This document shows, in pieces, positions 37,119-44,114 of a stretch of DNA of 44,728 bases. Below the pieces are notes generated by a model. The model had not been told where the DNA came from. It did not search any database and saw only the letters and a list, made by a program, of their open reading frames with translations. Numbering within the stretch: position 1 is the stretch's first letter; every line of letters begins with the position of its first letter. Source of the DNA: Escherichia phage ULINTec6; sequence record MZ997840.1; one strand, 5' to 3'. The position numbers and the translations under genes were made by a program.

Positions 37119-37313
37119 ATGATTAACTCCGAACTGGTAGATAGTGGTGTGAAGCTTGCGCCACCTGCATTAGTCTCAGGTGGGTACTTCCTCGGTATCA
37201 GTTGGAATGATTGGGTTCTTATAGCTACATTCATTTATACTGTATTACAAATTGGCGATTGGTTTTATGTAAAATACAAAGCTAGGAGAGATAAGCGTGA
37301 GCGTACACAATAA
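37119..37313 (+). CDS. Putative holin (small membrane protein with charged C-terminus)
   Basis: 64 aa with hydrophobic segments and a highly charged tail (KYKARRDKRERTQ); at the T7 gene 17.5 position. Confidence 0.55.
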   Translation: MINSELVDSGVKLAPPALVSGGYFLGISWNDWVLIATFIYTVLQIGDWFYVKYKARRDKRERTQ

Positions 37314-37596
37314 ACATGCAGCTACAGAGGACGAGGTTGGCATTCTGCATGGTGCTATTACCAAAATCTTTAATAAGAAAGCACAGGCAATACTGGACAC
37401 TATAGAAGGAGATCCAGATGCAGCACTGCATTTAGTGTCTGGTAAAGACATTGGAGCTATGTGTAAGTGGGTTCTTGATAATGGTATTACCGCTACACCT
37501 GCTGCACAGCAGGAAGAGTCCAAGTTATCTAAGCGCCTCAAGGCTATCCGAGAGGCATCCAGTGGTAAGATAATTCAATTCACTAAGGAGGGCTGA
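37297..37596 (+). CDS. Terminase small subunit
   Basis: 99 aa, immediately upstream of and overlapping the large terminase; GTG start after AGGAGAG RBS; assignment by position. Confidence 0.6.
   Translation: MSVHNKHAATEDEVGILHGAITKIFNKKAQAILDTIEGDPDAALHLVSGKDIGAMCKWVLDNGITATPAAQQEESKLSKRLKAIREASSGKIIQFTKEG
37389..37410 (+). promoter_or_regulatory. Phage promoter embedded in the small terminase CDS (AATACTGGACACTATAGAAGGA)
   Basis: Near-full consensus inside the coding sequence. Confidence 0.55.
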
Positions 37597-39494
37597 TGGC
37601 TAAGGCAAGAGAGTCACAAGCGGAGGCTCTTGCCAGATGGGAGATGCTACAGGAGTTACAGCAGACCTTTCCGTACACATCGGAAGGTTTGCTTCTCTTT
37701 GCAGACACAGTTATCCATAACTTGATTGCAGGCAACCCTCATCTGATTCGTATGCAGGCTGACATCTTGAAGTTCCTATTCTACGGACATAAGTATCGCC
37801 TCATCGAAGCGCCTCGTGGCATCGCTAAGACAACATTATCAGCAATCTATACAGTCTTCCGTATCATACATGAACCTCACAAACGTATCATGGTGGTATC
37901 CCAAAATGCTAAGCGAGCAGAGGAAATCGCAGGTTGGGTAGTTAAAATCTTCCGTGGCTTAGACTTTCTTGAGTTTATGCTGCCGGATATCTACGCTGGG
38001 GACCGTGCATCCGTTAAGGCGTTCGAGATTCATTACACCCTACGTGGTAGTGATAAGTCTCCCTCTGTATCCTGTTACTCAATCGAAGCAGGTATGCAGG
38101 GTGCTCGTGCTGATATTATTCTAGCGGATGACGTAGAGTCGATGCAGAATGCTCGTACGGCAGCGGGCCGTGCCTTGCTTGAGGAACTGACTAAGGAGTT
38201 TGAATCTATCAACCAGTTTGGGGATATCATTTACCTTGGTACGCCTCAGAACGTAAACTCTATCTACAACAACCTACCTGCTCGTGGTTACTCTGTTCGT
38301 ATCTGGACTGCGCGTTATCCTTCAGTAGAGCAAGAGCAATGTTATGGTGACTTCCTTGCACCTATGATTGTTCAAGATATGAAGGACAACCCAGCACTTC
38401 GCTCAGGGTACGGGTTGGATGGTAATAGTGGTGCACCTTGTGCCCCTGAAATGTATGATGATGAAGTCCTGATTGAGAAGGAAATCTCTCAGGGTGCGGC
38501 TAAGTTCCAGCTTCAGTTCATGCTTAACACTCGCATGATGGATGCAGACCGCTACCCGCTTCGCTTGAACAACCTTATCTTCACTTCATTCGGTACTGAG
38601 GAAGTCCCTGTGATGCCTACGTGGAGCAACGACTCCATCAACATCATTGGAGATGCACCGAAGTATGGCAATAAACCTACAGACTTCATGTATAGACCTG
38701 TGGCCCGTCCTTATGAATGGGGGGCTGTTACCCGCAAGATTATGTATATCGACCCAGCGGGTGGTGGTAAGAACGGAGATGAAACAGGCGTGGCTATAGT
38801 CTTTCTGCACGGCACATTCATTTACGTGTATCAGTGCTTCGGTGTGCCAGGCGGATACCGTGAATCGTCCCTGAATCGCATTGTGCAGGCCGCAAAGCAG
38901 GCGGGTGTTAAAGAGGTATTCATTGAGAAGAACTTTGGTCATGGCGCGTTTGAGGCCGTTATAAAGCCATACTTTGAACGAGAGTGGCCTGTAACTCTGG
39001 AAGAGGATTACGCCACAGGACAGAAAGAGTTGCGTATCATTGAGACGCTGGAGCCACTCATGGCGGCCCACAGGCTCATCTTTAACGCAGAGATGGTGAA
39101 ATCGGACTTTGATTCGGTACAGAACTATCCGCTTGAGCTACGCATGTCCTACAGTCTTTTCAATCAAATGTCGAACATCACGATTGAGAAGAACAGCCTC
39201 CGGCACGATGACCGCCTAGACGCTCTGTATGGCGCTATACGGCAATTAACTTCTCAGATAGACTATGACGAGGTTACACGGATTAATCGCCTCAGAGCGC
39301 AGGAGATGCGCGATTACATCCATGCTATGAACACACCTCACCTCCGTAGGGCTATGCTCTATGGAGATTATGGCACTGAGCGAAGAGTAACCAACACTTC
39401 CGTGGCTATGCAGCAAAGAGTGTACGGTCAGAATTACAGGAGTAAATCGGCCAACCGAAATACACTTTCTGCAAGGATTTCAAGGACTTATTAA
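37596..39494 (+). CDS. Terminase large subunit
   Basis: 632 aa; Walker A-like EAPRGIAKTT; late position as for T7 gene 19. Confidence 0.9.
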   Translation: MAKARESQAEALARWEMLQELQQTFPYTSEGLLLFADTVIHNLIAGNPHLIRMQADILKFLFYGHKYRLIEAPRGIAKTTLSAIYTVFRIIHEPHKRIMVVSQNAKRAEEIAGWVVKIFRGLDFLEFMLPDIYAGDRASVKAFEIHYTLRGSDKSPSVSCYSIEAGMQGARADIILADDVESMQNARTAAGRALLEELTKEFESINQFGDIIYLGTPQNVNSIYNNLPARGYSVRIWTARYPSVEQEQCYGDFLAPMIVQDMKDNPALRSGYGLDGNSGAPCAPEMYDDEVLIEKEISQGAAKFQLQFMLNTRMMDADRYPLRLNNLIFTSFGTEEVPVMPTWSNDSINIIGDAPKYGNKPTDFMYRPVARPYEWGAVTRKIMYIDPAGGGKNGDETGVAIVFLHGTFIYVYQCFGVPGGYRESSLNRIVQAAKQAGVKEVFIEKNFGHGAFEAVIKPYFEREWPVTLEEDYATGQKELRIIETLEPLMAAHRLIFNAEMVKSDFDSVQNYPLELRMSYSLFNQMSNITIEKNSLRHDDRLDALYGAIRQLTSQIDYDEVTRINRLRAQEMRDYIHAMNTPHLRRAMLYGDYGTERRVTNTSVAMQQRVYGQNYRSKSANRNTLSARISRTY

Positions 39495-39516
39495 TTACTG
39501 GACACTATAGAAGGAA
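39494..39516 (+). promoter_or_regulatory. Phage RNAP promoter after the terminase (AATTACTGGACACTATAGAAGG)
   Basis: Full consensus; followed by an AT-rich repeat region and an 8-bp perfect hairpin (gggtgtac-tcct-gtacaccc). Confidence 0.8.
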
Positions 39517-39654
39517 GGCCCAGATAATAAGAGAAATAACAAGGATAATATAGGTTAACCTAGGGTATATAGGTATGCCTTAGTATGGGTGTACTCCTGT
39601 ACACCCTATTCCTTACTTCCTTACTATACTCACATAATAGGAGAGAGAAAAAAA

Positions 39655-39933
39655 ATGTCTAATAGTTATAGCACACAACCCCTTACAGGTAAGTCTGCTC
39701 GTAAGCAGATACAACCTGTGAGTGAAGCCCTGATGCTTCCTGTAGTTTACGAGGACACTGTTGAGAAGAAAGGTGATGTTATTAATGATGCCACCAAATC
39801 AGGTAAGCAGAAAGGAGCCATGGTGTGTCTTGATACACATGATACACTGGTTATTGCTATCGCAGTTGATGGCAAAGAAGATTCCAATTGGCTGACCACG
39901 TTATTAGCGGTCACTACTATTACCCCAGCTTAA
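39655..39933 (+). CDS. Hypothetical protein, member A of a tandem paralogous pair
   Basis: AGGAGAG RBS then ATG 39655; shares MSN..TG...SGKQKG.MV...L.IAIA...TP.A pattern with the next gene. Confidence 0.55.
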   Translation: MSNSYSTQPLTGKSARKQIQPVSEALMLPVVYEDTVEKKGDVINDATKSGKQKGAMVCLDTHDTLVIAIAVDGKEDSNWLTTLLAVTTITPA

Positions 39934-39945
39934 GAGGAGAATTAC

Positions 39946-40233
39946 ATGTCTAATTATGGAAACGCAGGTACTGTTACTGGTCAAGCTTTTCGAGTAAAAA
40001 CTGTACAAACCACTGCAACGGCAATCCCTTTGCCTATTGTTGCTGAAGCAGACCTTAAGAAGAAAGATCACCCTATCAACATTAAACACCTATCTGGCAA
40101 ACAGAAAGGCTCCATGGTTGCTGTAGAGAAAGCAGACAACTCCTTGTACATCGCTATTGCACGTGGTAGTGAACCAACTGACCCTTGGGATGCAACCACT
40201 ATGGAGGAGACACCTGTAACCCCTATAGCTTAA
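39946..40233 (+). CDS. Hypothetical protein, member B of a tandem paralogous pair
   Basis: GAGGAG RBS; clear similarity to 39655..39933. Confidence 0.55.
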   Translation: MSNYGNAGTVTGQAFRVKTVQTTATAIPLPIVAEADLKKKDHPINIKHLSGKQKGSMVAVEKADNSLYIAIARGSEPTDPWDATTMEETPVTPIA

Positions 40234-40242
40234 TTGTAACAG

Positions 40243-40599
40243 ATGAGGTCGGTGGTGCTTAATAGATACTTCAAGCGACGCGAGTTCGCTTGCCGTTGTG
40301 GATGCGGTACATCCACTGTTGATGCTGAGTTACTACAGGTAATCACAGATGTGCGTGAGCACTTTGGCGCACCTGTAGTTATTACCTCTGGTCATCGCTG
40401 TGCAAAGCACAATGCCAACGTAGGTGGAGCAAAAGGTTCCATGCATCTTACTGGTAAGGCTGCTGACATTAAGGTACAAGGTATTACACCTTACCGTGTA
40501 TGGTCTTACCTAACAGCACGATACCCTAATAGGTATGGTATTGGGTCTTACCCTAACTTCACTCACATTGATGTACGAGATGGGTGTGCACGATGGTAA
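40243..40599 (+). CDS. Peptidase M15-type zinc peptidoglycan hydrolase (putative endolysin)
   Basis: SGHRCAKHN, SMHLTGKAADI and FTHIDVRD motifs typical of M15 D-Ala-D-Ala carboxypeptidase / L-Ala-D-Glu peptidase-like enzymes. Confidence 0.7.
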   Translation: MRSVVLNRYFKRREFACRCGCGTSTVDAELLQVITDVREHFGAPVVITSGHRCAKHNANVGGAKGSMHLTGKAADIKVQGITPYRVWSYLTARYPNRYGIGSYPNFTHIDVRDGCARW

Positions 40600-40707
40600 G
40601 ATGTATTGAATGGTGCGAGCGCATGGTTACTCAAGCTGCCGAGGATGGCAACTATGATGACTGGAAGAATTACTCTGACTTGTTAGCTCAATGGAAAGGG
40701 AGATGCA

Positions 40708-40857
40708 ATGAAAAAGCTGTTTAAGTCTAAGAAAGTGGTAGGTGCGCTGGTTGCACTGGTGATTGCTCTTGTTTCTGTAGGTCTTGGCGTAGACCTAGGT
40801 GGAGGTACGGAAGGTTCCGTCACTGACGTGGTATGCCAAGTAATCACCTGTGAATAA
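40708..40857 (+). CDS. Small single-pass membrane protein (49 aa; holin/antiholin-like)
   Basis: GGAG RBS; MKKLFKSKKVVGALVALVIALVSVGLG; below ORF-track cutoff. Confidence 0.35.
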   Translation: MKKLFKSKKVVGALVALVIALVSVGLGVDLGGGTEGSVTDVVCQVITCE

Positions 40858-41071
40858 GGTGCTTGAGGTGGTGGCAGGCCTTATTGGCCTGCTGCTTGCC
40901 GCTAAGAATAAGAAGGAAGAGAAGGAGGCACAAAGTGAGGCGAATCATGCTAGCGACAATCCTGCTGATTGGTTCGCTGATCACTTCAGGGTGTCAGACG
41001 GCGTTACCAGAGAATCCAAAGGTAAAGCCCCTGAAGCCGACGCTGACGGCAGTTTACGAGGTGGACGATAA
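40850..41071 (+). CDS. Putative i-spanin (Rz-like)
   Basis: N-terminal TM helix VLEVVAGLIGLLLAA then charged domain; contains the o-spanin start in the +1 frame; exact start uncertain. Confidence 0.5.
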   Translation: MNKVLEVVAGLIGLLLAAKNKKEEKEAQSEANHASDNPADWFADHFRVSDGVTRESKGKAPEADADGSLRGGR

Positions 41072-41144
41072 AGTCTGCTTCAGTAAGCCTGACGCTACAA
41101 AATTAGGTCTGTACATTCTCTCGCTAGAAAGCGGGTATAATTAA
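40947..41144 (+). CDS. Putative o-spanin (Rz1-like outer-membrane lipoprotein)
   Basis: Lipoprotein signal with lipobox LITSGC, proline-rich mature part QTALPENPKVKPLKPTL; starts inside the i-spanin ORF in another frame and extends past it. Confidence 0.6.
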   Translation: MLATILLIGSLITSGCQTALPENPKVKPLKPTLTAVYEVDDKVCFSKPDATKLGLYILSLESGYN

Positions 41145-41173: not shown

Positions 41174-41196
41174 ATTTACTGGACACTATAGAAGAG
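41174..41196 (+). promoter_or_regulatory. Phage RNAP promoter upstream of the tailspike module (ATTTACTGGACACTATAGAAGAG)
   Basis: Full consensus. Confidence 0.8.
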
Positions 41197-41678: not shown

Positions 41679-44114
41679 ATGATTCAAAGACTAGGTTCTT
41701 CATTAGTTAAATTCAAGAGTAAAATAGCAGGTGCAATCTGGCGTAACTTGGATGACAAGCTCACAGAGGTTGTGTCGCTTAAAGACTTTGGAGCCAAAGG
41801 CGATGGTAATACAAACGACCAAGATGCAGTAAATGCAGCGATGGCTTCAGGTAAGAGAATTGACGGTGCTGGTGCTACTTACAAAGTATCATCTTTACCT
41901 GATATGGAGCGGTTCTATAATACACGTTTCTTATGGGAACGTTTAGCGGGTCAACCTCTTTACTATGTGAGTAAAGGTTTTATCAATGGTGAACTCTATA
42001 AAATCACGGATAACCCTTATTACAATGCTTGGCCTCAAGACAAGGCGTTTGTATATGATAATGTGATATATGCACCTTACATGGGTAGCGACCGTCACGG
42101 TGTTAGTCGTCTGCATGTATCATGGGTTAAGTCTGGTGACGACGGTCAAACATGGTCTACCCCAGAGTGGTTAACTGATCTGCATCCAGATTACCCTACA
42201 GTGAACTACCATTGTATGAGTATGGGTATATGTCGCAACCGTCTGTTTGCCATGATTGAAACACGTACTTTAGCCAAGAACGCACTAACCAATTGTGCAT
42301 TGTGGGACCGCCCTATGTCTCGTAGTCTGCATCTTACGGGTGGTATCACTAAGGCTGCAAATCAGCGATATGCAACAATACATGTACCAGATCACGGACT
42401 ATTCGTTGGCGATTTTGTTAACTTCTCTAATTCTGCGGTAACAGGTGTATCAGGTGATATGACTGTTGCAACGGTAATAGATAAGGACAACTTCACGGTT
42501 CTTACACCTAACCAGCAGACTTCAGATTTGAATAACGCTGGAAAAAGTTGGCACATGGGTACTTCTTTCCATAAGTCTCCATGGCGTAAGACAGATCTGG
42601 GTCTGATCCCTCGTGTCACAGAGGTGCATAGCTTTGCTACTATTGATAATAATGGCTTTGTTATGGGCTATCATCAAGGTGATGTAGCTCCACGAGAAGT
42701 TGGGCTTTTCTACTTCCCTGATGCTTTCAATAGCCCATCTAATTATGTTCGTCGTCAGATACCATCTGAGTATGAACCAGATGCGTCAGAACCATGCATC
42801 AAGTACTATGACGGTGTATTATACCTTATCACTCGTGGCACTCGTGGTGACAGACTTGGAAGCTCTTTGCATCGTAGTAGAGATATAGGTCAGACTTGGG
42901 AGTCACTAAGATTTCCACATAATGTGCATCATACTACTTTACCGTTTGCTAAGGTAGGAGATGACCTTATTATGTTTGGTTCAGAACGTGCAGAAAACGA
43001 ATGGGAAGCAGGTGCACCAGATGATCGTTACAAGGCATCTTATCCTCGTACCTTCTATGCACGATTGAATGTAAACAAATGGAATGCAGATGATATTGAA
43101 TGGGTTAACATCACAGACCAAATCTATCAGGGTGACATTGTTAACTCCAGTGTAGGGGTAGGTTCTGTTATAGTTAAAGACAGCTACATTTACTATATCT
43201 TTGGTGGTGAAAACCATTTCAACCCAATGACTTATGGTGACAACAAAGATAAAGACCCATTTAAAGGGCACGGACACCCTACTGATATATACTGCTATAA
43301 GATGCAGATTGCAAATGACAATCGTGTATCTCGTAAGTTTACATATGGTGCAACTCCTGGTCAGGCTATACCTACTTTCATGGGTACTGATGGCATCCGA
43401 AATATTCCTGCACCTTTGTATTTCTCAGATGACATTGTTACAGAGGATGCTAAAGTTGGACACTTAACACTTAAAGCAAGCACAAGTGCCAATATACGGT
43501 CTGAAGTGCAGATGGAGGGTGAGTATGGCTTTATTGGCAAGTCTGTTCCAAAGGATAACCAAACAGGTCAACGTTTGATTATTTGTGGTGGCGAAGGTGC
43601 TTCATCTTCTTCAGGTGCACAGATAACTTTGCACGGCTCTAATTCGAGTAATGCTAAGCGTATCACTTATAACGGAAATGAGCACCTATTCCAAGGTGCA
43701 CCAATCATGCCTGCTGTAGATAACCAGTTTGCTGCCGGTGGACCTAGTAACCGATTCACTACCATCTACCTAGGTAGTGACCCTGTTACAACTTCAGATG
43801 CTGACCACAAGTACGGTATCTCTAGTATTAATACCAAGGTGTTAAAGGCTTGGAGTAGGGTTGGTTTTAAACAGTATGGTTTGAATAGTGAAGAAGAGAG
43901 GAACCTTGATAGCATACACTTCGGTGTCTTGGCTCAGGATATTGTAGCTGCTTTTGAAGCTGAAGGATTGGATGCCATTAAGTATGGAATTGTGTCCTTC
44001 GAAGAAGGTAGGTATGGTGTAAGGTATAGTGAAGTTCTAATCCTAGAGGCTGCCTATACTCGCCATCGTCTTGATAAATTAGAGGAGCTGTATGCCACTA
44101 ATAAAATCAGTTAA
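41679..44114 (+). CDS. Tailspike protein with Asp-box (sialidase-like) motifs and C-terminal intramolecular chaperone domain; likely capsule-depolymerising endosialidase
   Basis: 811 aa; Asp boxes SGDDGQTWS and SRDIGQTWES; N-terminal DFGAKGDGNTNDQDAV; C-terminal SDADHKYGISSINTKV...IHFGVLAQDIVAAFEAEG resembles the autocleaving chaperone domain of phage tailspikes/endosialidases. Confidence 0.8.
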   Translation: MIQRLGSSLVKFKSKIAGAIWRNLDDKLTEVVSLKDFGAKGDGNTNDQDAVNAAMASGKRIDGAGATYKVSSLPDMERFYNTRFLWERLAGQPLYYVSKGFINGELYKITDNPYYNAWPQDKAFVYDNVIYAPYMGSDRHGVSRLHVSWVKSGDDGQTWSTPEWLTDLHPDYPTVNYHCMSMGICRNRLFAMIETRTLAKNALTNCALWDRPMSRSLHLTGGITKAANQRYATIHVPDHGLFVGDFVNFSNSAVTGVSGDMTVATVIDKDNFTVLTPNQQTSDLNNAGKSWHMGTSFHKSPWRKTDLGLIPRVTEVHSFATIDNNGFVMGYHQGDVAPREVGLFYFPDAFNSPSNYVRRQIPSEYEPDASEPCIKYYDGVLYLITRGTRGDRLGSSLHRSRDIGQTWESLRFPHNVHHTTLPFAKVGDDLIMFGSERAENEWEAGAPDDRYKASYPRTFYARLNVNKWNADDIEWVNITDQIYQGDIVNSSVGVGSVIVKDSYIYYIFGGENHFNPMTYGDNKDKDPFKGHGHPTDIYCYKMQIANDNRVSRKFTYGATPGQAIPTFMGTDGIRNIPAPLYFSDDIVTEDAKVGHLTLKASTSANIRSEVQMEGEYGFIGKSVPKDNQTGQRLIICGGEGASSSSGAQITLHGSNSSNAKRITYNGNEHLFQGAPIMPAVDNQFAAGGPSNRFTTIYLGSDPVTTSDADHKYGISSINTKVLKAWSRVGFKQYGLNSEEERNLDSIHFGVLAQDIVAAFEAEGLDAIKYGIVSFEEGRYGVRYSEVLILEAAYTRHRLDKLEELYATNKIS

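Follow-up and report, generated by a model that had tools for sequence, protein, structure and literature searches.

In SP6-like phages, the lysis genes lie at separate positions, as reported in a paper of 2015. A census of spanins listed the representatives K1-5, K1E and SP6 as 'separated' two-component systems, with a 49-amino-acid (aa) protein as the inner-membrane spanin (i-spanin) and a lipoprotein as the outer-membrane spanin (o-spanin), and flagged this i-spanin 'Too small?' (Kongari et al. 2018, BMC Bioinformatics 19:326, PMC6139136). Here, the lysis genes of Escherichia phage ULINTec6 (sequence record MZ997840.1; positions 37,119 to 41,144) were analysed together with a 73-aa open reading frame (ORF) that lies between the genes for the 49-aa protein and the lipoprotein. 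"The window" denotes the whole stretch of DNA that was analysed (44,728 nucleotides, nt). A homologue of the 73-aa protein already appears in the census, as the 69-aa i-spanin of UAB_Phi78, whose system is listed as 'overlapped' (PMC6139136). The RefSeq records of K1-5 and K1E annotate the holin, terminase, endolysin, a 'holin' (the 49-aa protein) and an 'Rz-like spanin'. The Texas A&M Center for Phage Technology (CPT) annotates a 47-aa homologue of the 49-aa protein as the i-spanin of Proteus phage Premi, and the later annotations from the census laboratory (LL11 and Premi) give the 49/47-aa protein as the i-spanin and leave out the intervening ORF.

The 44.7-kb window is a complete K1E/K1-5-like podophage genome (Autographiviridae, Molineuxvirinae, Vectrevirus), and nearly all of its large ORFs lie on the + strand. 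Over the 4.3-kb lysis region, DNA identity was 93.7% with ULINTec7, 93.4% with K1E and 89% with K1-5, and matches reached down to SP6 and to Proteus and Klebsiella relatives. K1E and K1-5 (89-94% DNA identity) and SP6 (about 74%; genes 38/41-45) carry the same genes in the same order as the window, namely a gp17.5-type holin before the terminase small-subunit gene (terS) and, after the large-subunit gene (terL), an M15 peptidase, the 49-aa protein and a 69-aa lipoprotein. The 73-aa ORF is present in all three phages but is missing from the RefSeq annotation of K1-5 and K1E. Judging from these comparisons, the region is very likely the SP6-type holin/endolysin/spanin set of a K1E-like (Molineuxvirinae) podophage, placed at two sites of the genome.

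An earlier interpretation of this DNA, made from the letters and translations alone (the sequence-only reading), had proposed a split lysis system with a holin before the terminase genes and an endolysin and overlapping spanins after them. The observation was confirmed, whereas the interpretation was only partly supported. The split is real, but it is not unusual, being standard in the T7 supergroup and in SP6-like phages; it is a known trait, and the roles allotted to the small proteins are one of two allocations already in the literature. Because the layout has been described for K1-5, K1E and SP6, the finding is ordinary in itself: it describes once more the lysis genes of a phage group that is well known, which RefSeq and the spanin census of 2018 already record. 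Several phages of the SP6/K1-5 group have been used in K1 and K5 phage-therapy work. The more informative result is an annotation gap: several reference annotations lack a small gene that is under selection, shares DNA with the o-spanin gene and recurs in very distant cassettes. As the census calls the K1-5/SP6 spanin pair 'too short' for the periplasm, this missed third gene provides a testable lead on how the outer membrane is breached.

Holin, endolysin and o-spanin genes

The gene at 37119..37313 (+ strand) encodes a T7 gp17.5-type class II holin of 64 aa. Its product matched PF10746 (T7 holin; E 4.8e-25, 87.5 bits against a curated cut-off of 25.4) and phrog_920 'holin' (5e-27), shared 37% identity with T7 gp17.5, and has homologues labelled holin in K1-5, LL11 and ULINTec7. 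It combines a hydrophobic core, WVLIATFIYTVLQIG, with a charged C-terminal tail, KYKARRDKRERTQ. The gene is preceded by a strong Shine-Dalgarno (SD) sequence, GGAGG, follows a 321-aa tail-fibre gene and overlaps terS. By these profile matches and its likeness to gp17.5, the product is a gp17.5-type holin, and the assignment of a holin to the T7 gene 17.5 position in the sequence-only reading was borne out.

The endolysin (40255..40599, + strand) is a single-domain M15A (Peptidase_M15_3) zinc peptidase of 114 aa, identified by PF08291 (E 1.6e-31, 109.1 bits against a curated cut-off of 23.2), by phrog_894 'endolysin' (3.2e-43) and by its motifs; it also weakly matches structure 1LBU. All the ORFs named in the sequence-only reading are present within 12 nt of the coordinates given there, including the lipoprotein end at 41144, but the peptidase more likely starts at GTG 40255 than at ATG 40243, since GAGG stands 6 nt upstream of the former and the resulting length of 114 aa is the one annotated in K1E, K1-5 and ULINTec7. 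In the 114-aa numbering, the SxHxxGxAxD and FxH motifs are intact (S62-M-H64-L-T-G-K-A-A-D71 and F102-T-H104), and R48 is present. LysPM1 of Proteus phage Homer, an M15A endolysin of 116 aa whose lytic activity and dependence on Zn were demonstrated in 2026, has its Zn triad at H63/D70/H104 and its substrate Arg at R47 (PMC13461873). Both enzymes consist of a single Peptidase_M15_3 domain within 114-116 aa and share the zinc and catalytic motifs and the Arg, although LysPM1 comes from a phage of another host (Proteus). A homologue of the window peptidase in the Proteus Acadevirus relatives has about 76% identity, and the enzyme type is frequent among phages (710 records). By analogy with LysPM1, we infer that the window peptidase would degrade peptidoglycan. 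A tblastn search of the window found no T7 gp3.5-type amidase, in agreement with the earlier suggestion that an M15 zinc peptidase replaces the T7-type enzyme. The N-terminus, MLNRYFKRREFACRCGCG, has no hydrophobic stretch, and no signal peptide, signal-anchor-release (SAR) domain or transmembrane segment was found; a peptidase lacking signal and anchor is expected to need a holin.

The gene at 40935..41144 (+ strand) encodes an o-spanin-type outer-membrane lipoprotein of 69 aa. The ORF opens at TTG 40863, and the start is GTG 40935, behind the SD sequence GAAGGAGG (40921-40928). The signal peptide, MRRIMLATILLIGSLITSG, is followed by C-Q-T; the lipobox is ITSG/C with Cys20 as the lipidation residue, Gln at +2 (no Asp) and a mature length of 50 aa. 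Thr at -3 is unusual, though the curators accepted this lipobox, and the Cys and the flanking Gly were invariant in 12 relatives. The C-terminal half is highly conserved (KPTLTAVYEVDDKVCFSKPDATKLGLYILSLE.GYN), its last 35 residues being almost invariant over four genera. A genome scan recovered 40935-41144 as the sole + strand lipoprotein ORF of the window, and the gene is the last of its cassette, after the endolysin, as it is in 10 distant cassettes described below. The product matched phrog_8971 'Rz-like spanin' (4.5e-38), is called O-spanin by UniProt and NCBI sources and was curated as the o-spanin in the census. On this evidence, the lipoprotein is of the o-spanin class, as the sequence-only reading had proposed.

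A selected gene overlapping the o-spanin gene

The 73-aa ORF (40850..41071, + strand; phrog_9219, function unassigned, 1.2e-34) begins with a GTG that overlaps the stop codon of the 49-aa gene (GTGAATAA), and this GTG is kept in 36/36 distinct relatives. The lipoprotein gene starts inside it in the +1 register, overlaps it by 137 nt and extends 73 nt past its end. Diversity by codon position was determined on an alignment of 37 distinct relatives with 62-94% DNA identity. In every small ORF, diversity was highest at position 3 and lowest at position 2: for positions 1/2/3, the values were 0.176/0.132/0.48 in the peptidase gene, 0.313/0.241/0.436 in a 43-aa ORF that follows it, 0.205/0.159/0.526 in the 49-aa ORF, 0.277/0.114/0.434 in the part of the 73-aa ORF that overlaps nothing and 0.176/0.043/0.383 in the non-overlapping part of the lipoprotein gene. 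By this measure, every ORF of the lysis set is coding.

For the 73-aa ORF, the minimum numbers of changes in the 81 non-overlapping nt were 17, 9 and 37 for the first, second and third codon positions, respectively, in 24 gap-free sequences (chi-square about 20, p about 5e-5); the same computation gave diversities of 0.17/0.064/0.328 for the unique part of this ORF and 0.108/0.0/0.279 for that of the lipoprotein gene. Pairwise ratios of nonsynonymous to synonymous substitution rates (dN/dS) were 0.09-0.49 in the non-overlapping part of the 73-aa ORF and 0.05-0.26 in the lipoprotein gene's own part, and the 73-aa frame is open in four genera at 62-72% DNA identity. The DNA that encodes the lipoprotein signal peptide also encodes the 73-aa motif DNPADWFADHFRV; diversity there was low at all positions, and its order fits the 73-aa frame. 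The codon-position pattern, the dN/dS values and the conservation of the start together indicate that both overlapping frames are translated and selected, and that the 73-aa ORF is under purifying selection. It is extremely improbable that the ORF is merely a frame left open by chance across the lipoprotein gene and the preceding gap, as the lack of an annotation in the K1-5 and K1E RefSeq records and in LL11 and Premi might suggest. A chance open frame was rejected on the codon-position diversity of the 81 nt and on dN/dS, and the start found in all 36 relatives, the frame kept open across genera and the 159 clusters of homologues described below argue against it as well. The o-spanin gene therefore begins, as previously noted from the sequence, within an upstream ORF in another frame and runs beyond it, and that upstream ORF is a real gene.

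The SP6 protein P0042 (65 aa), which is encoded in the 73-aa frame, is named 'o-spanin' by NCBI and UniProt; it has no lipobox and lies in another frame than the lipoprotein. The name is probably a mislabel that will propagate.

The 73-aa family in distant cassettes

A word-indexed search with the 73-aa protein recovered 69 relatives, nearly all of 53-77 aa, and a HMMER profile search of 1.84 billion representatives recovered 159 clusters (defined at 50% identity) at E <=0.001, nearly all of 58-95 aa. A tblastn search against phage records returned SP6-like phages only, with residues 1-31 of the query masked by the low-complexity filter. Family members share a plan consisting of an N-terminal Leu-rich helix, a basic cluster, the motifs (A/V)Q.EA(D/N) and D/N-P-x-x-W-F-x-x-H-F, and a polar disordered tail. 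In the window protein, the N-terminal helix is amphipathic or weakly hydrophobic, the conserved motif after the basic cluster reads AQxEA..DxPxDWFxxHFRV, and the disordered tail is variable. An AlphaFold2 monomer model placed helices at 3-36 and 38-45, followed by a disordered tail, with a low mean pLDDT (predicted local distance difference test) of 60.5. About 54 charged residues follow the helix, which in the model reaches residue 45 before disorder sets in; these 54 residues and the 50 of the mature lipoprotein would together lie at the short extreme of curated spanins.

Ten distant metagenomic loci carrying the family were compared (L050, L052, L053, L054, L056, L057, L058, L059, L060 and L063). 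In 10/10, a lipoprotein ORF begins approximately 70-95 nt into the 73-aa-family gene, in another frame, and extends past its end, and in 10/10 the lipoprotein bears the C-terminal signature of the window protein, ..GG(V/I)x(F/L)..DA..LG.YI(L/I)(E/D)LE(R)GY. This shared overlap and signature indicate that the 73-aa/lipoprotein pair is old and stable. A small membrane-protein gene stands immediately upstream of the 73-aa-family gene in seven of the ten loci: its stop or last codons overlap the start of the family gene in L050, L053, L056, L057, L059 and L060, as in the window, and it ends 3 nt before that gene in L063. L052 has a 70-aa ORF that stops 5 nt before the family gene, and L054 a 5'-truncated ORF that overlaps the family gene by 29 nt; these two were placed in the 'TPTxKDD' type solely on resemblance. 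The family gene of L058 is preceded by a gap of approximately 140 nt. The upstream membrane proteins belong to three or four unrelated types, namely the 49-aa type (L057), a protein of approximately 70 aa with two transmembrane domains ('WWQSKxxWGG'), a protein of approximately 66 aa ('TPTxKDD') and a 112-aa protein. The enzyme just upstream, found in 6/10 loci, also varies (M15_3, Amidase_3 or DUF5675). In L059, a PF16083 holin gene occupies the enzyme position; L057 has an ORF of 152-160 aa without family assignment two genes upstream; and no enzyme was identified on the short contigs L052, L054 and L063. Pfam searches with the small proteins and the distant neighbours gave no match above threshold, only weak ones to DUF6732, DUF7940 and Holin_SPP1.

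Two of these loci also encode proteins of 107-112 aa in which a single hydrophobic segment at the N-terminus is combined with a long coiled coil (L052 186-509 and L053 3046-3384), located upstream of the 70-aa ORF in L052 and of the M15_3 peptidase gene in L053 and weakly matching XhlA and coiled-coil Pfam families. They could be holins or classical i-spanins; in the latter case, a conventional partner for this lipoprotein family would be encoded at another place in the two cassettes. An apparent fusion of a membrane protein with a 73-aa-family protein, P0162 (L063 214-687, 157 aa), was rejected: under table 11, a stop codon separates two ORFs within it, and translation of the locus does not yield the database protein. 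The entry stems either from erroneous gene calling or from a phage with stop-codon recoding.

The 49-aa membrane protein

The gene at 40708..40857 (+ strand) encodes a 49-aa membrane protein with one transmembrane segment, identified by hydrophobicity, phrog_4712 and curation. Its hydrophobic 19-mer, VVGALVALVIALVSVGLGV, scores -1.58, within the range of lambda Rz, and is preceded by five Lys, which predicts a topology with the N-terminus in the cytoplasm and the C-terminus outside. The predicted periplasmic part comprises approximately 21 largely uncharged residues ending in CQVITCE, with a conserved CxxxxC. The protein matches phrog_4712 'holin' (2.3e-26) and is also labelled 'holin' in RefSeq, so that it could be either a mini i-spanin, following the expert annotation, or a protein of the holin class, following the PHROG and RefSeq label. 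It has neither the sufficiently long, charged helical periplasmic domain of an i-spanin nor the charged cytoplasmic C-terminal tail of a holin, its charge being N-terminal and its C-terminus neutral. The suggestion in the sequence-only reading that it might be an antiholin or second holin was not established; experts curate the protein as an i-spanin.

Across its full length, terminal Cys pair included, the protein aligns with a 47-aa protein of Vibrio phage ICP3. Its family co-occurs with an o-spanin in SP6-like phages, in ICP3 and in Lelliottia phage phD2B, but not in Klebsiella phage vB_Kpl_K44PH129C1. In phD2B, a 45-aa homologue follows the peptidase. A 38-aa lipoprotein ORF, which resembles the ICP3 lipoprotein, is found upstream of the peptidase in the same phage (L018 1387-1503). 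A whole-genome scan of K44PH129C1 (L047) found no lipoprotein ORF, with all three positive controls recovered. This phage keeps homologues of the peptidase, the 43-aa protein and the 49-aa protein, whereas the 73-aa/lipoprotein pair was not found; it is apparently a spanin-less relative.

Proposed lysis mechanism and the partner of the lipoprotein

The holin, peptidase and lipoprotein are identified here by sequence and homology, and from the same comparisons we infer their activities and the partner of the lipoprotein. The holin would build up in the inner membrane and then trigger; the signal-less peptidase would pass through the holin lesions to the wall and cut peptidoglycan peptides; and the lipoprotein, together with a phage-encoded partner, would disrupt the outer membrane. 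As to this partner, we tentatively favour, as possible rather than probable, the reading that the 73-aa protein and the lipoprotein, as a conserved overlapping pair, form the outer-membrane-disruption unit, which would make the 73-aa protein a non-canonical partner. On that basis, we lean towards regarding the 49-aa protein as an exchangeable small membrane protein, of the holin class or serving as an anchor. The 73-aa and lipoprotein families always occurred together as an overlapping pair in the loci examined, the type of the upstream membrane protein changes among distant loci, and K44PH129C1 has the 49-aa family without a lipoprotein. Overlapped i-spanin/o-spanin genes are also the commonest architecture (228/528 two-component systems), and the 73-aa homologue was accepted as the i-spanin of UAB_Phi78 (PMC6139136). 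Several observations nevertheless weigh against a 73-aa partner. A crude hydrophobicity count in 112 family representatives gave a median of 9 for the longest run of residues other than Asp, Glu, Lys and Arg before the DPxxWF motif, with a run of 11 or fewer in 69% and of 15 or more in only 18/112; helices such as MRAFVELLNRILALLESALRRRE and MGAIIRILDAIIALLTKYQQEKE are amphipathic and cannot span a membrane. The window helix (MNKVLEVVAGLIGLLLAAKNKK), which is among the family's more hydrophobic members, has 12 uncharged residues between Glu6 and Lys19 (15 counting Glu6); its best 15-mer scores +0.21, compared with +1.63 for T7 gp18.5, and on this crude scale is akin to the known spans of gp18.5 and the holin. 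Furthermore, the conserved basic cluster lies C-terminal to the helix, and by the positive-inside rule the conserved domain would be cytoplasmic. Judged by these features, an N-terminal transmembrane segment is marginal in the window protein and absent from most family members, and the 73-aa protein does not appear to be a canonical membrane-anchored i-spanin. The i-spanin role given to it by the sequence-only reading was not established: the overlapping pair is always co-inherited, but the anchor is missing in most of the family and a basic cluster comes after the helix. The 73-aa protein varies at its C-terminus, whereas the contact between lambda Rz and Rz1 is made by the C-termini; overlapping genes are, moreover, co-inherited regardless of function. 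The last points on this side concern the 49-aa protein, which has a solid transmembrane segment and the right predicted topology, whose ICP3 homologue is encoded directly beside another type of lipoprotein, where T7 has 18.5/18.7 and without a third ORF, and whose phD2B homologue occurs with an ICP3-like lipoprotein.

The latter features lead to the alternative that the 49-aa protein is a mini i-spanin and the lipoprotein its o-spanin in a 'separated' architecture, with another or a minor role for the 73-aa protein. This is the assignment made for K1-5, K1E and SP6 by Kongari et al., and LL11 and Premi are annotated likewise with the 49/47-aa protein. The Lys-rich N-terminus ahead of the transmembrane segment predicts the orientation required, the conserved C-terminal CxxxxC would suit the periplasm, the ICP3 homologue and its lipoprotein occupy the slot of the T7 spanins, and phD2B again combines the two types. 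However, we consider this doubtful: the periplasmic part of only approximately 21 uncharged residues drew the curators' flag 'Too small?', and the pair with the lipoprotein, which totals 71 periplasmic residues, was flagged 'Too short'. Elsewhere, the same lipoprotein family follows membrane proteins that have two transmembrane domains or an N-out/C-in orientation and almost no periplasmic part, K44PH129C1 keeps the 49-aa homologue without a lipoprotein, and a selected, conserved ORF in what would be a '77-nt gap' is left unexplained. It is improbable that the 49-aa and 73-aa proteins instead form a second holin/antiholin pair or a regulator of lysis timing, for which the cytoplasmic antiholin RIII of T4 is the comparison, with the lipoprotein acting alone or with a host protein. 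The 'holin' tag of the 49-aa family in PHROG and RefSeq, the holin-like proteins with two transmembrane domains that precede members of the 73-aa family in other cassettes and weakly match Holin_SPP1 and DUF7940, and the basic cluster after the 73-aa helix, which suggests a cytoplasmic domain, are consistent with such a pair. That tag, however, is a bare annotation, the charged C-terminal tail typical of holins is missing from the 49-aa protein, a gp17.5-type holin is already encoded, and the maintained overlap with the lipoprotein gene would have no explanation. Quite improbable, too, is a three-part, holin-gated device, in which a soluble or peripheral cytoplasmic 73-aa protein would enter the periplasm only through the holin lesions; it may bind the C-terminal domain of the lipoprotein while its amphipathic helix lies on the membrane, with the 49-aa protein perhaps as an anchor. 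Such a device would fit a family whose members always accompany the lipoprotein although most have no transmembrane segment, and large holin lesions are expected in any case because the endolysin is signal-less. The start of the 73-aa gene overlaps the stop of the upstream membrane-protein gene in the window and in 6/10 loci, which suggests coupled translation, but L052, L058 and L063 have a gap in place of this overlap, and in L054 the overlap is deeper. The idea is purely conjectural; the AlphaFold2 monomer is of low confidence, and the P0162 fusion is artefactual. We know of no precedent for a holin-gated or three-part spanin device, and a literature search on spanins without a transmembrane anchor found nothing relevant. 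More generally, there is a slim chance that the 73-aa protein is the lipoprotein's partner and represents an unnamed class of unanchored, soluble or amphipathic spanin partners (at least 159 clusters), which would encounter the lipoprotein only once the holin has opened the inner membrane; outer-membrane disruption would in that case be gated by the holin and not by a pre-assembled bridge across the periplasm. In another form of this reading, the 73-aa protein would belong to a three-part 49-aa/73-aa/lipoprotein spanin.

Neighbouring genes and transcription unit

The terminase genes terS (37297-37596, + strand) and terL (37596-39494, + strand), identified from the PF11123/PF22530 set and from annotations in relatives, part the holin gene from the remaining lysis genes and are not lysis genes themselves. 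terL directly follows terS with nothing in between, so that the slot of T7 genes 18.5/18.7 is empty in the window. The window terL is uninterrupted (632 aa), whereas K1E (NC_007637) and several relatives have 40A and 40B with the homing-endonuclease gene 40.5 between them; the K1E match falls in two pieces because its terL is split by gene 40.5.

After terL, the cassette runs in the order 92/95-aa paralogues, peptidase, 43-aa, 49-aa, 73-aa and lipoprotein ORFs, and neighbours mostly touch or overlap; the order from the peptidase onwards is kept in Vectrevirus, Zindervirus, Acadevirus and Klebsiella Molineuxvirinae. A phage-RNA-polymerase promoter core, GACACTATAGAAG, stands directly after the terL stop (39501-39513, + strand) at the head of this cassette, and its next copy (41182-41194) lies just beyond the lipoprotein stop, at the end of the cassette. 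The motif had 13 matches in the window against 1.26 expected by chance, 12/13 of them on the + strand, and an exact copy lies within terS (37396-37408). The promoters at 39501 and 41182 suggest that the genes from 39655 to 41144 form one late transcription unit. A G+C-rich hairpin with a T-rich run (39587-39606) is found 75 nt downstream of the 39501 promoter, before the first cassette gene; it could be a terminator, an attenuator or a processing site.

The first two genes of the cassette, on the + strand at 39655-39933 (92 aa) and 39946-40233 (95 aa), encode paralogous small proteins with 39% identity to each other (E 8e-16). Genes of this type precede the peptidase in all relatives, in one or two copies; in some Klebsiella phages, a copy is enlarged to 178-233 aa. 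The pair belongs to phrog_2725, whose inherited tag 'acetyl-CoA acetyltransferase' looks like a misnomer for proteins of this size. The 43-aa soluble protein (40593..40724, + strand; phrog_1312, 7.4e-19) has a conserved CxxWC motif, and the ATG of its gene overlaps the endolysin stop (ATGGTAA). Neither this ORF nor the two paralogues figured in the sequence-only reading. It was found in Vectrevirus, Zindervirus, Acadevirus and Klebsiella relatives and is absent from phD2B; it is possibly a lysis accessory. Beyond the cassette, the endosialidase gene (41679-44114) is the last of the genome.

Comparison with T7, ICP3 and lambda

T7 encodes a gp3.5 amidase, the gp17.5 holin and the embedded spanins gp18.5/18.7. 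The window resembles it in having a homologous holin at the same position, scattered lysis genes and an o-spanin gene that shares DNA with a gene in another frame. In contrast, its endolysin is an M15A peptidase encoded after terL, whereas that of T7 is an early amidase that also regulates RNA polymerase, and its lipoprotein gene overlaps the neighbouring gene, whereas the o-spanin gene of T7 is embedded. When the 73-aa, 49-aa and lipoprotein alignments were compared with gp18.5 and gp18.7 by hhalign, a match was confined to the lipobox region (probability of 0.2% in each of two gp18.5 comparisons and 31.5% for gp18.7, in the lipobox region), and tblastn of the window found no gp18.5/18.7 homologue. 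Kinship of the small window proteins with the T7 spanins was rejected because the hhalign matches were limited to the lipobox.

The 'mini-spanin' pair of Vibrio phages ICP3 and VP4 consists of a 47-aa membrane protein and a 65-aa lipoprotein and, like the window pair, was flagged 'too short'. Its lipoprotein, however, is unrelated to that of the window, the pair is flanked by genes 18 and 19, as the T7 spanins 18.5/18.7 are, and no ORF of the 73-aa type accompanies it. As with lambda Rz/Rz1, the distal end of the lysis genes in the window is formed by a lipoprotein gene whose start lies within the preceding gene, in the +1 frame. The upstream products differ: the N-terminus of lambda Rz forms a firm transmembrane segment, and its periplasmic part is a coiled coil of approximately 130 aa, whereas members of the 73-aa family have a helix that is weakly hydrophobic or amphipathic, plus some 50 other residues of which half are disordered.

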